This document shows positions 4,283 through 12,557 of a stretch of DNA of 64,000 nt, piece by piece; position 1 is the first letter of the stretch, and the number at the start of each line of letters is the position of its first letter. Source of the stretch: a virus (lineage: Duplodnaviria; Caudoviricetes); the IMG/VR virus record IMGVR_UViG_3300038679_000051, positions 32,001-96,000 of that record. One strand, 5' to 3'. Under the pieces are notes generated by a model. The model saw only the letters and a list, made by a program, of their open reading frames with translations, searched no databases and had not been told where the DNA came from. The position numbers and the translations under genes are program-made.

Positions 4283-5485
4283 ATGGCTAATAATTTGGTC
4301 ACGGTCTTGTTAATTGGTATGAATGACGCCAAACCACATACGACTGAACGCAATGGTACGTTGGGTTTTGAATGTCATTATTTGGACAATGATGAAAATC
4401 TCGAACGAGCGTTAGTTGAACATCATCCACAAGTAATCGTCACTTTCGGTGACGTCCGATCATATAAGAGATTATGGAATGCACCAATTGAGATTAGAAA
4501 ACGTTGGCTCAATTTTGATAAACCAATCGATCCGCTTAAATTAGGTTCATCTATCTTAAGTTGTTATGCGATCAATGCAACCGGTAGAATTTTTGGTGAA
4601 TTGCCATTGATGTCCATCATTACGCCGACGTATAGAACTGGGCGTAAGATATTCCGACCGTTCAATTCATTGATGCAACAAACTTATAAGAACTGGGAAT
4701 GGGTCATCTTTGATGATTCTATGGATGATGATAAGACATATAATGAGATGTGCCATTTGGCTAAGCAAGATCATCGCATTTCGGTTTATAAAGCACACAG
4801 ACATTGCGGCGTGATTGGTGAATTGAAACGACGTGCCGCGATGTTGTCAAAAGGTGATTACATAGTTGAATTGGATCATGATGATGAACTTACACATGAA
4901 TGCCTGGATTATGTCATTGAGGCATTCAAACAATTTAATGACGCCGGTTTTGCTTATGGAGATTGTGCAGAGATATATGACGATGGACGCAATAGGACAT
5001 ATGGCCGATGGGCGTTCGATTATGGCAGTTATCGCAAAGAAATTTATGATGGTAGGGAATTGTTTGTGACTAATTATCCAAACATCAATTCTAAAACCAT
5101 CCGACACATTGTCGGCGTACCAAATCACGTCCGCGCATGGCGTAAAGATGATTATTTCGTAATTGGTGGTCACGGTAGCGACGTTCACGTCGCTGACGAT
5201 TATGAATTGTTGTTACGGACGTTTTTATATACGCCAATGATCAAAATACCAAAACTTACGTACATACAATATCATAACAGAAATGGTGGCGGCAATACGC
5301 AGATGTCTAGAAATGCAGAGATACAACGGTTGGTAAGACAATTCTCACATCATTATAATAAAGAGATCCATGATCGATTCATGGAATTGGGCGTCGATGA
5401 TTTCATTTGGGCGGAGAATGGACTAAATTGGAACGTTCCAAATAAGGACCCAGAATCAATCGCCAATTATGTGGCAGTTTTTTGA
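4283..5485 (+). CDS. GT2-family glycosyltransferase with extra N-terminal domain
   Basis: MSIITPTY...QQTYKNWEWVIFDDS, SKGDYIVELDHDD, ADDYELLLRTF; ~110-aa N-terminal extension. Confidence 0.9.
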   Translation: MANNLVTVLLIGMNDAKPHTTERNGTLGFECHYLDNDENLERALVEHHPQVIVTFGDVRSYKRLWNAPIEIRKRWLNFDKPIDPLKLGSSILSCYAINATGRIFGELPLMSIITPTYRTGRKIFRPFNSLMQQTYKNWEWVIFDDSMDDDKTYNEMCHLAKQDHRISVYKAHRHCGVIGELKRRAAMLSKGDYIVELDHDDELTHECLDYVIEAFKQFNDAGFAYGDCAEIYDDGRNRTYGRWAFDYGSYRKEIYDGRELFVTNYPNINSKTIRHIVGVPNHVRAWRKDDYFVIGGHGSDVHVADDYELLLRTFLYTPMIKIPKLTYIQYHNRNGGGNTQMSRNAEIQRLVRQFSHHYNKEIHDRFMELGVDDFIWAENGLNWNVPNKDPESIANYVAVF

Positions 5486-5865
5486 ATTAATGCAATTAGA
5501 CATGATCCTAGATTGTTCAGGACATGTTTTAAATATTTTTCAGAATACCCTGAATCAAATAATCTGTAAAATATGACGCAATATCGATCGTCTTGCATAT
5601 AATTTAAACCGAATTGTTGCGTGATTACTGGTATTAGTGGTGAATCTAGTTCTTGTCTACCGTCATAATATATCTTAATGTCTATAAATGACGTATTGCC
5701 GATTTTGGTCAATATTATGCTTGGTGGGCAAAGGGATTCTCGACTTCCCATTTTCCTGGTCATCATCACCGATTTAATCGTTCCACCATTTGATGTGATG
5801 ATGATATATCCAAGAGATTCAAGCATCTTAATTAATGCATTCATGTAATTATATACGTTAAACAT
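5467..5865 (-). CDS. Hypothetical protein
   Basis: AT-rich ORF; start probably 5865 or 5844. The open extension to 6045 runs through the GC-rich structured element. Confidence 0.5.
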   Translation of the reverse strand: MFNVYNYMNALIKMLESLGYIIITSNGGTIKSVMMTRKMGSRESLCPPSIILTKIGNTSFIDIKIYYDGRQELDSPLIPVITQQFGLNYMQDDRYCVIFYRLFDSGYSEKYLKHVLNNLGSCLIALIQKTAT

Positions 5866-5894
5866 AATGATGGACCCATGTGAGGTATCACGCA

Positions 5895-6023
5895 GCCGGG
5901 TGACGTGACCGAGGGCGGGTCTGAGGTTTAGCGATCTGAACCTCGCTTCTCCCCATATCTCCGGCAGACCATGGTGGTACTCGTCACTGAATGGTTGACC
6001 CGCCGGTCGGTCTAAAGGCCGGC
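5895..6023 (+). ncRNA. Candidate structured RNA (multi-helix, possible pseudoknot), family unknown
   Basis: GACCGA/TCGGTC plus GGCGGGTC/GACCCGCC closing stem; hairpins GAGGTTTAG-CGAT-CTGAACCTC and GACCAT/ATGGTT; GTGACG (5900-5905) complementary to loop CGTCAC (5982-5987). G-U wobbles work on the + strand. Confidence 0.45.
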
Positions 6024-6075
6024 AATAAATAACATTGGCAAACATAAAAATGGGACATATAACTGGAGGAATGAG

Positions 6076-6564
6076 ATGAACATCAGCGATCGTATAATGT
6101 CGGCATTAGCTGAAGCAATACCGATACCAACCAAGGAAACTATAGCGAGAAGGAAGGAAGAGGTGGCTGACGCAGAGGCAGAAGTTGCTTCTGATCCAGC
6201 AGACATTGATACTGCGTCCGAATTTTTGGGCATAGCACCAGAAACGCCGGAAACGCCACCGGATGCACCAGGAGCACCGCCGCCGCCAGGAGAAGTACCG
6301 GGAGCGCCAGAGGCAGCACCACCGGTAGCGCCAGAGGCAGCACCACCGGTAGCACCAGAGGCAGGAGAAATAACAGGACCGGAAAAGACTGAACGAATCG
6401 ACATGCGGATCAAGCCATCGGATAAATCAGAAATTGAAGCAGCGGCTAGTAATCTTGGTTTGACTGTTTCGGCTTATGTCATGTTTTTACATAAGAGTTA
6501 TGGTGGTAGGGTCGGTATGCCACAGCCACAGCAGCCACAGCAGCCACAAGGCTCAATACAATAA
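6076..6564 (+). CDS. Ribbon-helix-helix DNA-binding protein with Pro/Ala/Glu-rich disordered N-terminus
   Basis: GGAGG RBS; TERIDMRIKPSDKSEIEAAASNLGLTVSAYV matches the RHH pattern; APEAAPPV repeats. Confidence 0.7.
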   Translation: MNISDRIMSALAEAIPIPTKETIARRKEEVADAEAEVASDPADIDTASEFLGIAPETPETPPDAPGAPPPPGEVPGAPEAAPPVAPEAAPPVAPEAGEITGPEKTERIDMRIKPSDKSEIEAAASNLGLTVSAYVMFLHKSYGGRVGMPQPQQPQQPQGSIQ

Positions 6565-6762
6565 ATCTAATGGTATGTCGTCGTATCTTCGTTTTAATAA
6601 TGGTGGTAACCGATTGCCAACTTTTGTCGGTTTAATTCTATTATTGTCATTAATTGGTCGCCCAAAGTCCTTGTTGGATATTCTACGAATATTGCAGCTC
6701 CTACAGTAGCCACTCCTATTCCTAGCGTAAATTTCTTTTTTGCAAACGACACATCGCCTCAT
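6553..6762 (-). CDS. Small Cys-rich (CxxC...CxxC) protein
   Basis: MRRCVVCKKEIYARNRSGYCRSC; GGAGAAG RBS. Confidence 0.55.
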   Translation of the reverse strand: MRRCVVCKKEIYARNRSGYCRSCNIRRISNKDFGRPINDNNRIKPTKVGNRLPPLLKRRYDDIPLDLLY

Positions 6763-6778
6763 GTTCTTCTCCGTTCGG

Positions 6779-6851
6779 TAGTCCCAGAAGGATTCGAACC
6801 TTCGACCGAGGGATTATGAGTCCCCTGCTCTCACCGCTGAGCTATGGGACC
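6779..6851 (-). tRNA. tRNA with CAU anticodon, most likely tRNA-Ile2 (lysidine-modified)
   Basis: GGTCCCATAGCTCAGCGGTGAGAGCAGGGGACTCATAATCCCTCGGTCGAAGGTTCGAATCCTTCTGGGACTA folds as a cloverleaf. It has C4-G69/C5-G68 and A73 and lacks the initiator GGG/CCC triad. G1-U72 wobble; CCA not encoded (CCG). Confidence 0.92.
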
Positions 6852-7144: not shown

Positions 7145-7160
7145 GCCCTTTCGTTTTTTG

Positions 7161-7541
7161 TGGAGGCGAGGGGAATCGAACCCCTGTCCCAAAAGAATTC
7201 CGACTCGACCGCTACATGTTTAGCACCATTTTAATCTTTTGCTTTCCTCTTTATGGTGCGACGCTGGAAAGCTACGGTTCCATTGATCTTACATGTTTCA
7301 CCTGGAACAACGGTTTGACATGCCAGTTCGTTTCGGTTACGCGTCTTAGGCGACCACGAACGGGGTCATCCTAAAACACGTCGCTGTTCTTAGGCAGCGA
7401 AGGCAACGCCCTTGCGAGCGTTGACTGCAAAGATGTTCTCTTTGGCAGTTGAAAGTTTGTGGATTTGATTTAAGAGAGATTCCACTGCTCTCTACATGCT
7501 GTCGAAATCTTCCTTCAAATGGTCGAAACCTTTGCGCCCCC
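7161..7541 (-). ncRNA. ssrA: tmRNA (one-piece), tag (A)AKENIFAVNARKGVAFAA*
   Basis: 5' GGGGGCGCAAAGGTTTCGAC pairs with 3' CGCCTCC-A (G3-U70 Ala identity); T-arm AGGGG-TTCGATT-CCCCT; resume context AACT-GCC; tag ORF 7390-7446 ends in AA-stop. Confidence 0.93.
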
Positions 7542-8908: not shown

Positions 8909-9229
8909 TCTCTTTTAATCGTCATTATTCTGTCGTAAATATGTTCCGGCTGCGATTATTTCTTGATCTTGGATGTTAATTGGTCCTTCAAATATCATTT
9001 TCTCTCCTTGCTTTTTAATGTACGGTCCATTCTATAACACATTGTTTTGTCGCGACAGTTCTTTCTACGTTCCTTATTCCATCCGAGTGAATTCGGACAT
9101 GTTTTCTTGCAGAGTTGGTCAAGTTTCGATTCACTTAGGGGCATTTTGTTGACCTTTCGCTTTGATCTTTTCACTTTATTTGCCTTTGTAAATACTTGAT
9201 GTTTCAAAAATAAAGAAAATGGAGGAAAC

Positions 9230-9862
9230 ATGTACGGAATTAGATTAGGCATAATATTTGAAGACGCAAGCATGATGCGAAGGCTCGCTATGGAATTCCC
9301 TAATTTCGATAAACTGTTGCGTAGGTTTGGGTTTGATGTCAACGATCTAGAATTGATTGGATATGGCGATCATGGACTTGCTTTCGCCAGCAATGATAAA
9401 GTAATTAAGATAACCGATGACAAGAATGAAGCTAGAGCGGCTGCGAATTTAATAAACAAGAAACTCACCGGCACCAACCAGATATATTATGTCGGATCAT
9501 TTAGTAAACTAATACAATACCACGATCCAGAAATCACCGACGATAAGATCCAATATTATGTGATCATACAAGAATTGGTTGATACCGTTTTGTCGGCAGA
9601 TGAACGCAAGGCGATAGATTTAGTATCAAATTGGTTGGATGAGTTGGAACGATGGCCATTCGACGTAGATGAAGCATGTCGTAAGATTGGTGAAAACGGT
9701 GCTGTGAGATCATTGTTGAACAGCATCAATGAATTATATAAACATGGCGTAAAGTATATGGACATACATTCTGGAAACGTGGGGCACAACAAAGATGGTA
9801 AATTGGTCGTATTTGATTTGGGCGTATCCGAAGCAAAGTCAGTTGCATATGGACGAATTTAG
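9230..9862 (+). CDS. Protein-kinase-like fold protein (ePK/APH superfamily)
   Basis: LIGYGDHGLAF (Gly loop), KVIKIT, IIQELV, YMDIHSGNV (catalytic loop), VVFDLG; GGAGG RBS. Confidence 0.8.
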   Translation: MYGIRLGIIFEDASMMRRLAMEFPNFDKLLRRFGFDVNDLELIGYGDHGLAFASNDKVIKITDDKNEARAAANLINKKLTGTNQIYYVGSFSKLIQYHDPEITDDKIQYYVIIQELVDTVLSADERKAIDLVSNWLDELERWPFDVDEACRKIGENGAVRSLLNSINELYKHGVKYMDIHSGNVGHNKDGKLVVFDLGVSEAKSVAYGRI

Positions 9863-11798: not shown

Positions 11799-12008
11799 TT
11801 ACCACCATTTGAATGTTTTGCCAAGGCCATAGACGGCCAAGCCTGTTATCGCACCTGCGATGATGACGGGAGCAGCCGTGACCGCAATGGCAGTCCCACC
11901 GATGACAAGACCACCACGCCCAACGATGGCGGCAACGGTCGCCCCCGCTGCTGCCCCGGCGGCGGTCGCCGTCCCAGACTTTGCCAATTCTTTTTCTTTC
12001 TCATTCAT
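11799..12008 (-). CDS. Small Gly/Ala-rich membrane protein (glycine-zipper-like)
   Basis: AAGAAAGATVAAIVGRGGLVIGGTAIAVTAAPVIIAGAITGLAVYGLG; AAGGAG RBS. Confidence 0.7.
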   Translation of the reverse strand: MNEKEKELAKSGTATAAGAAAGATVAAIVGRGGLVIGGTAIAVTAAPVIIAGAITGLAVYGLGKTFKWW

Positions 12009-12043
12009 GCGTTTTCTCCTTGTCTGGTTCTCCCTCACGTTTC

Positions 12044-12081
12044 CTAAAAAAATGCAGGGGCTGGCTATAACCCCTGCATTT
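12044..12081 (-). terminator. Rho-independent terminator
   Basis: Minus strand reads AAATGCAGGGG-loop-CCCCTGCATTT followed by TTTT. Confidence 0.8.
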
Positions 12082-12089
12082 GGAAATTG

Positions 12090-12194
12090 TTAATTAATTA
12101 ACGTTCCGGCGATGAAACTGAGTACGCACAACGCTAAACCAAGCATTATTAACGACTTAAACATGGCTACGACGACTGCAATGACGGCCATCAT
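12090..12194 (-). CDS. 34-aa hydrophobic peptide (not in ORF track)
   Basis: GAAAGGGGG RBS; MMAVIAVVVAMFKSLIMLGLALCVLSFIAGTLIN. Confidence 0.5.
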   Translation of the reverse strand: MMAVIAVVVAMFKSLIMLGLALCVLSFIAGTLIN

Positions 12195-12209
12195 TCCCCC
12201 TTTCTACGG

Positions 12210-12377
12210 TTACCTACCGGGCCGGCCGGTCTTAGCCTCGTAATCGGCCTTGGACAGCCAATTTCCGGATGACTTCTTTGCCGACACGCCGCGATCGACG
12301 TGATTGGCGTGGGCACGACGATTGTAATCGCTCGTCTTTTCGCCCTTTGCCCTGCTCGTGACCCATTTGCTTGCCAT
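12210..12377 (-). CDS. 55-aa basic protein (not in ORF track)
   Basis: GGAGGG RBS; MASKWVTSRAKGEKTSDYNRRAHANHVDRG...GRPGR. Confidence 0.5.
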   Translation of the reverse strand: MASKWVTSRAKGEKTSDYNRRAHANHVDRGVSAKKSSGNWLSKADYEAKTGRPGR

Positions 12378-12557
12378 TTCTTCTTCCCTCCCCTAGCCCA
12401 ACTGCTCTCTGCGTCTTCCTGCACATGTCATGCACCAGTGCTGAAATTCACAATTCTCTCGTTCTTTACACTATGTCCTTTCGCCTTTTCGTCAATATCC
12501 CCGGCATCTGCATATCTAGTCTCGTCATGTTTCTACGCTCCCCAAATTGCTAGCGGA

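Follow-up and report, generated by a model that had tools for sequence, protein, structure and literature searches.

The window analysed here is a stretch of 64,000 nucleotides (bases 32001-96000) of a phage genome of 320,399 bp, which has direct terminal repeats and a GC content of 41.5%. At positions 5895-6023 of the window lies an element with a GC content of 0.62, set in flanking DNA of 31-38% GC. It occupies most of the 210-bp gap between two divergent genes, a minus-strand ORF at 5467-5865 and a plus-strand ORF at 6076-6564. By ARAGORN, the entire genome has just two genes of tRNA type, a tRNA-Met (6777-6851, minus strand) and a tmRNA (7160-7541, minus strand); the element is 750 nt away from the tRNA, with the opposite-strand gene in between. 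The location given in the first-pass annotation (AT-rich DNA between divergent genes, near the tRNA and tmRNA) is thus accurate. On a larger scale, GC skew and gene orientation show that a plus-strand block, the glycosylation island, ends at the element and that a minus-strand block begins there and continues to 166 kb. A two-gene unit at such a block junction is a typical spot for accessory DNA. Could the junction be a replication origin? The skew turn near 38-40 kb of the genome tracks the switch in gene orientation, where the two blocks converge, and the skew reaches its global minimum at 166 kb, so an origin was rejected.

The flanking genes are both orphans. The minus-strand gene (5467-5865, referred to here as ORF132) is an orphan encoding 132 amino acids, with a probable true start at 5865, 30 nt from the end of the element, and a frame that is open on to 6045. 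It has a weak language-model likeness to YbjN and CesT-type chaperone-like clusters (scores 0.85-0.88). Its single-sequence structure model is of low confidence (pLDDT 55.7), and the predicted order of secondary structure (helix, strands, helix, strands, long C-terminal helix) may be compatible with a YbjN/CesT-type fold. The plus-strand gene (6076-6564) starts with an ATG at 6076 preceded by a Shine-Dalgarno sequence, GGAGG, at 6065-6069, and has a codon score of +0.40. Its 162-aa product combines a proline/alanine-rich repeat with a C-terminal ribbon-helix-helix (RHH) motif. In Pfam this protein matches NikA-like at E 1e-4 and TacA1 at E 1.4e-3, neither of which reaches the curated cut-offs, and protein searches found no homologues of it. 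Two repeats within the gene are visible at the protein level: the PVAPEAAP repeats come from a 24-nt tandem repeat at 6297-6364 (2.8 copies, 95% matches), and the PQPQQ tail from a short CAGCCACAG repeat at 6523-6548. Elsewhere in the window, two GC-rich islands at 11800-12400 (minus strand), conspicuous in the scan for such islands, look by eye like genes for tiny Gly/Ala-rich, probably membrane-spanning proteins and not like RNA.

Is the element part of a protein-coding gene? The minus frame is open across it up to an ATG at 6045, a 60-codon extension of 5467-5865 that had been entered as a caveat when the element was first described, and gene callers predict the resulting 192-aa product (5467-6045) in public assemblies. 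Coding potential was scored with a codon table built from 123 long ORFs of this genome, for which 60-codon segments of real genes have a mean of 0.25 and a standard deviation of 0.11. The extension (5866-6045, 60 codons) scores -0.10 bits/codon, under 99.3% of the 60-codon segments of long ORFs, against +0.14 bits/codon for the remaining 132 codons, in that frame only. Its GC content by codon position is 0.60/0.48/0.57, compared with 0.48/0.39/0.38 for the genome, and the island formed by the element has one of the lowest composition-normalised best-frame coding scores among the 62 GC-rich islands of the genome. There is no Shine-Dalgarno sequence ahead of 6045, though AAAGGAG-type sites dominate the gene starts of this phage, and the 192-aa ORF has no homologue but itself among 5.8 billion proteins. 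The low codon score and the lack of a homologue make the minus frame across the element most likely non-coding. The caveat therefore describes a frame that is indeed open, and an extension that looks non-coding. The element is probably not protein-coding, and the public 192-aa call probably over-extends a 132-aa gene starting at 5865.

What the element does contain is a 129-nt, GC-rich candidate RNA folded as a three-way junction and exceptionally stable for its composition. The architecture proposed from the letters by the first-pass annotation (an outer stem, a 14-bp closing stem, two hairpins and a C-rich linker) is present at 5895-6023, and ViennaRNA recovers it on the plus strand. The outer stem pairs GCCGG (5895-5899) with CCGGC (6019-6023), in the sequence and in both the minimum free energy (MFE) and centroid structures. 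Inside it, the 5' arm of the closing helix, GACCGA-G-GGCGGGTC (5907-5921), forms 6 + 8 bp with the 3' arm, GACCCGCC-GG-TCGGTC (5997-6012), giving the 14 bp of this segment. The long-range helix as a whole comprises 5 + 6 + 8 = 19 bp, spans about 75 nt and encloses two hairpins. Hairpin 1 (5922-5945) has 10 bp, including 2 G-U pairs, and a CGAT loop; hairpin 2 (5968-5995) carries CGTCAC (5982-5987) in its loop. Between them runs a C/U-rich linker (5946-5967) that is unpaired in the centroid, and of which 7 nt are unpaired in the MFE structure while the remainder lengthens hairpin 2. MFE and centroid give the same three-way junction when 5890-6030 is folded as plus strand, and the junction is retained on folding 235 nt of context.

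The plus-strand MFE is -61 kcal/mol (z -3.0), and 1 of 200 dinucleotide shuffles is equally stable. How unusual is this for the genome? A genome-wide scan was made with 130-nt segments (n = 3559, one of them in register with the element), and MFE was regressed on GC. The element has the second lowest plus-strand MFE among the 3559 segments of the 320-kb genome and exceeds in stability all other segments with a GC content of 0.55 or more (116 in total). Corrected for GC it ranks 13 of 3559 (z -3.04), a value of about -3 being attained by roughly 0.4% of the segments of the genome, in a region that had been chosen for its structured look. The segments covering the phage's own tmRNA have GC-corrected z of -3.1 to -3.4, which puts the stability of the element in the range of a known structured RNA. 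By composition, the gap holding the element is about 7th by peak GC among 90 intergenic gaps of at least 90 nt (by our own crude gene calls), in a list of high-GC gaps that also includes the tmRNA gap and a gap with a 5-nt-periodic array. The element is single-copy in the genome. On these predictions it remains a candidate RNA with a fold unusual for this genome.

A pseudoknot had also been suggested, between the 5' leader GTGACG (5900-5905) and the loop of hairpin 2, CGTCAC (5982-5987). The two are indeed complementary, and the pairing would be worth about -7 kcal/mol. The complementarity does not go beyond chance, since at least one 6-mer complement occurs in 80% of dinucleotide shuffles, and the contact competes with the top of hairpin 2. 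For both reasons the pseudoknot is treated here as unsupported.

From which strand would such an RNA be read? The plus-strand fold has 45 base pairs, 4 of them G-U, against 39 with no G-U in the minus-strand fold; the first-pass annotation had noted that the wobbles work on the plus strand. For the minus strand the MFE varies with the stretch chosen, from -53.6 to -54.8 kcal/mol; its shuffle z is -2.8 and its GC-corrected rank 89 of 3559 (z -1.95). The preference of the fold for the plus strand is moderate but real.

A plus-strand transcript would need a promoter upstream of the fold. The phage genome contains a motif, TAAATAC(TT), that precedes nine gene starts at a distance of 21-78 nt, roughly 4 times as often as expected by chance; 9 of its approximately 50 exact sites fall 15-90 nt upstream of a gene start. 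One copy is in the window (9189-9197, plus strand), upstream of a plus-strand gene at 9230, and others are on the plus strand at genome positions 139156, 159619, 189347, 241040 and 246076, and on the minus strand at 233779, 124125 and 11786. The late promoter of T4 is TATAAATA. TAAATAC(TT) resembles it and is probably one promoter class of this phage. By a position weight matrix (PWM) built from the nine sites upstream of genes, TATATAC at 5850-5856 (plus strand) scores among the top 0.008% of positions in the genome. This putative promoter lies 39 nt 5' of the fold, has one mismatch to TAAATAC(TT) and is inside the neighbouring ORF. It is a weak hint of a plus-strand transcript that would start at about 5863 and carry the fold.

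If transcription does start near 5863, as this T4-late-like site suggests, the fold would be placed in a leader of about 210 nt on the mRNA of the RHH gene. There is no intrinsic terminator between the fold and the plus-strand gene, and with none between the end of the fold at 6023 and the ATG at 6076 the fold would lie inside the leader of that mRNA. Promoter-like sites can also be picked out by eye 3' of the fold, AATAAATAAC at 6024-6033 and TTGGCA-17-TATAAC at 6035-6063, and the latter, if used, would exclude the fold from the RHH mRNA. Because of these sequences we infer the leader assignment and do not count it as a result. What would a leader of this kind do? Neither a terminator/antiterminator pair nor a predicted sequestration of the RHH Shine-Dalgarno was found. 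A pairing of the linker with the Shine-Dalgarno region (UCUCCGG/CUGGAGG) is possible on paper and absent from the predicted fold of 235 nt. As no expression platform is seen, a ligand-sensing riboswitch seems less likely than a 5' structural module, which would most likely act in mRNA stability or processing, or in protein binding. We tentatively prefer, with a confidence that stays somewhat short of the halfway point, a lineage-specific structured RNA on a plus-strand transcript, in the simplest case the RHH leader, with a role in stability, processing or protein binding.

The search for relatives gave no diverged homologue. An exact 33-mer of the element has no other match in IMG/VR, blastn of 5400-6600 against 50,697 phage records came back empty, and so did protein searches with both flanking orphan genes. 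A single-sequence covariance model of the element found no match in 65 loci sharing the neighbouring glycosyltransferase, in 5 large viral records, in 50 records from the jumbo-phage clade with a split DnaE (taken whole; 8 have a completeness of 98% or more) or in the tmRNA neighbourhoods of three relatives. The pattern of the closing stem hit at least 120 stretches in metagenome contigs, of which 80 were examined, and 10 stretches in viral contigs; all of those inspected were chance matches in GC-rich DNA. A tmRNA-tag pattern aimed at sister phages found nothing. The only other copies of the element are in two Logan assemblies, 100% identical over 3.8-6 kb; samples holding this phage include the runs behind Logan contigs SRR13051709 and SRR11844738. 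A search with its DnaE agrees with a place in the split-DnaE jumbo-phage clade and finds relatives at 84% and 71% identity (contigs of 5-7 kb), at 57% (a 61-kb contig) and at no more than 48% for the rest. One of them, a 395-kb genome with direct terminal repeats and a DnaE 45% identical, has a tmRNA followed by a tRNA-Met on the same strand, as in this phage, with the tmRNA tag GETNVLSLDAFRAPARIAA where this phage has AKENIFAVNARKGVAFAA. Beyond its tRNA-Met come a tRNA-Gly, then a simple hairpin and a gene for an unrelated 124-aa protein; no fold like that of the element is present there. Given the common order of tmRNA and tRNA-Met, this pair is older than the surrounding accessory genes.

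This distribution bears directly on the possibility that the element has no RNA function and is a compositional remnant, either decayed GC-richer DNA that had been acquired or a recombination scar where the two gene blocks join, in which the fold is accidental. The element is present once, it is absent from the 50 related jumbo-phage records and from the tmRNA/tRNA-Met region of the 395-kb relative, and both its neighbours are orphans, as expected of an accessory spot with fast turnover; moreover, about 13 plus-strand segments of the genome reach the same corrected z. Set against this are the second lowest plus-strand MFE in 320 kb and the top stability among the 116 GC-rich segments, together with a 19-bp helix over about 75 nt and two well-formed hairpins, an organised architecture beyond a generic GC effect. 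The identical sequence in independent samples points the same way, though it carries little weight at such short divergence. We regard an accidental fold as unlikely.

An RNA could also be read from the minus strand, as a structured leader or gene-junction element before the 132-aa gene (ATG 5865). The minus-strand fold is significant as well (-54.8 kcal/mol, shuffle z -2.8), the element ends 30 nt upstream of the start of ORF132, and this is the orientation of the tRNA and tmRNA and of the long block of minus-strand genes. The phage, in addition, has type I hammerheads at minus-strand gene junctions. This is nevertheless an unlikely reading, and we give it slightly less credence than the accidental fold: the GC-corrected rank is 89 of 3559, compared with 13 for the plus strand, the minus fold has 6 fewer pairs, the 4 G-U pairs of the plus strand become A-C mismatches, the plus-strand gene at 6076-6564 intervenes between the element and the tRNA cluster, and the PWM scan found no minus-strand promoter-like motif upstream of the element.

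The function might lie in the DNA itself. NikA/MobC-type RHH proteins bind inverted repeats beside their own genes, and the element could be an operator or cruciform for the adjacent RHH protein, controlling the divergent promoters. In favour are the position of the RHH gene, right beside the element and divergent from ORF132, the fact that the shared promoter region is filled by the element, and the main stems, which as inverted repeats with perfect Watson-Crick pairing could serve on either strand. RHH operators, however, are usually repeats of 10-20 bp near the -35/-10 region, not arms of 14-19 bp that are 75 bp apart and enclose hairpins; the G-U pairs of the hairpins are meaningless in duplex DNA, and the RHH match itself is under the Pfam cut-offs. 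A role at the DNA level therefore seems improbable to us. We think it equally improbable that the element represents a functional class of phage RNA not sighted before, for example a self-processing or protein-scaffolding three-way junction at a gene junction, from a poorly sampled jumbo-phage lineage. That the element encodes the N-terminal 60 residues of the 192-aa minus-strand protein (5467-6045), for which speak the open frame from ATG 6045 and the public gene calls, is highly improbable in view of its codon score and codon-position GC, the lack of a Shine-Dalgarno sequence ahead of 6045 and the lack of a homologue.

How does the element, taken in the preferred reading as a structured RNA of a plus-strand transcript, compare with known RNAs? 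The first-pass annotation could not match it to a known family and had proposed a search against Rfam, which bears this out. At gathering thresholds, Rfam 15 matches only the tRNA and the tmRNA in the window. On 5700-6200 at E <= 10 it gives four matches at chance level (E 1.6-9.4, far under gathering), to three snoRNA families and one togavirus element. A tRNA-like or tmRNA-like RNA was rejected, as ARAGORN calls nothing in the element, even with introns or with the relaxed setting -ps80, and there is no T-loop sequence (GTTCRANYC); the calls under relaxed settings, at about 5711-5798 and at 6061-6146, are both outside it. Bacterial Y RNA and retron msr/msd or another reverse transcriptase-associated ncRNA were also considered. 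The whole phage genome has no TROVE/Ro60 domain and no RVT_1 match, and there is no Rfam match to a Y RNA; the lack of Ro60 and of a reverse transcriptase argues against either type.

No clear sign of ribozyme cores was seen in the element. Like a hammerhead, it is a three-way junction between genes, and its junction lengths in the MFE structure (0/7/2) resemble the 1/7/3-4 of hammerheads. The likeness ends at the sequence: on the plus strand the junction consists of strands of 0 nt, CUUCUCC and UU, and on the minus strand of AA, GGAGAAG and 0 nt, with no CUGANGA and no GAAA, the 7-nt strand of the element reading CUUCUCC in place of the CUGANGA of a hammerhead. There is also no Rfam hammerhead match at E <= 10 in 5700-6200. 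A home-made descriptor for HDV-like/theta ribozymes (a nested double pseudoknot with P1 of 7 bp, P3 of 3 bp, P1.1, P2 and P4) gave 6 weak, G-U-rich solutions on the plus strand and 0 on the minus strand, none of them compatible with the stable fold of the element.

The phage does have hammerheads of its own, which have canonical cores. Two type I copies are on the minus strand, at about 119,454-119,534 and 120,582-120,649 of the genome, with the form CCCAU-CUGAKGA-helix II-GAAA-helix III-UA|AUGGG, both at minus-strand gene junctions and beside a pair of small paralogous genes. Neither was reported by Rfam cmscan over 17 kb at E <= 0.01, a setting at which short ribozymes can therefore be missed. 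With its tmRNA and its hammerheads, the host phage is already rich in RNA devices.

A further phage RNA system considered was VIPR. Its vrRNA guide array is described as alternating GGY and NN with a 5-nt period (bioRxiv 10.64898/2026.04.26.720920). The element was rejected as such an array: it has no 5-nt periodicity, Tandem Repeats Finder is blank in 5895-6023, and GGY fits 2 of 6 pentads in the best register. At another place in the genome (120,905-120,966; L304:2106-2167) there is a 62-nt array with a 5-nt period and up to 86% GC, GCCCC on the plus strand and GGGGC on the minus strand, followed by four repeats of about 120 nt (L304:2200-2560), each with ATAACTAAAAATCATAACTGTACACACATTGTCCATAT. 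The 62-nt array could be a VIPR-type guide array.

Another comparison is with the T4 species 1 and 2 RNAs, rnaC and rnaD, the classical pair of unexplained RNAs in a phage tRNA cluster. Like the element they are encoded by a phage, are of about its size (139 and 119 nt) and border a tRNA cluster, and no function is known for them. Both adjoin tRNA-Arg in the same orientation, rnaC with a tRNA-like T arm, whereas the element is 750 nt from the tRNA, beyond an opposite-strand gene, folds better on the strand opposite the tRNA and has no T arm. Kinship with them was rejected, as the covariance model of the element matches neither.

A further comparison is offered by a widespread, uncatalogued phage RNA motif with a near-invariant 43-nt core, ACCTGTAATAAGGTCGAGCCNAAGCGCGGTAAT, that forms two small hairpins and is found in 1048 phage records with an 81-nt query. 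Among its carriers are phages of the T4-like and rV5-like groups, one Pseudomonas phage and an E. coli phage of 45 kb. In T4 a 43-nt segment upstream of, or overlapping, the annotated start of vs.8 has 88-95% identity with rV5-like phages; this copy is at 64,860-64,902 of NC_000866, within the annotated 5' end of vs.8, and has the core ACCTGTAATAAGGTCGAGCC.AAGCGCGGTAAT. Like this motif, the element is a GC-rich fold from a non-coding part of a large lytic phage genome, is absent from Rfam and is followed by a promoter-like motif of the TAAATA type. Unlike it, the element lacks the core, is three times larger as a fold and is without relatives. A covariance model of the motif, built from 8 aligned copies from diverse phages and searched over the whole window with filters off, matched nothing at or near 5895-6023 (the best match, 9.7 bits with E 1.1, is elsewhere), and on this ground the element is not a member.

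The element belongs, then, to a loosely defined kind, the unexplained GC-rich structured elements of large phages, and to no defined family. Should it prove a true RNA, it would lengthen the growing list of structured RNAs without explanation that occur near the tRNA and tmRNA genes of large lytic phages. As a singleton it has nothing general to teach yet, and its main value is as a flagged coordinate. Structured 5' leaders are one more known system for comparison. Such leaders stabilise or process phage and bacterial mRNAs, as 5' stem-loop stabilisers or as processing stems for RNase III. The element would resemble them in that a long, interrupted helix would lie close to the 5' end of what is probably an mRNA and no expression platform of the ligand type is seen; the known examples are simple hairpins or RNase III stems of 20-25 bp, whereas the element is a three-way junction of 129 nt.
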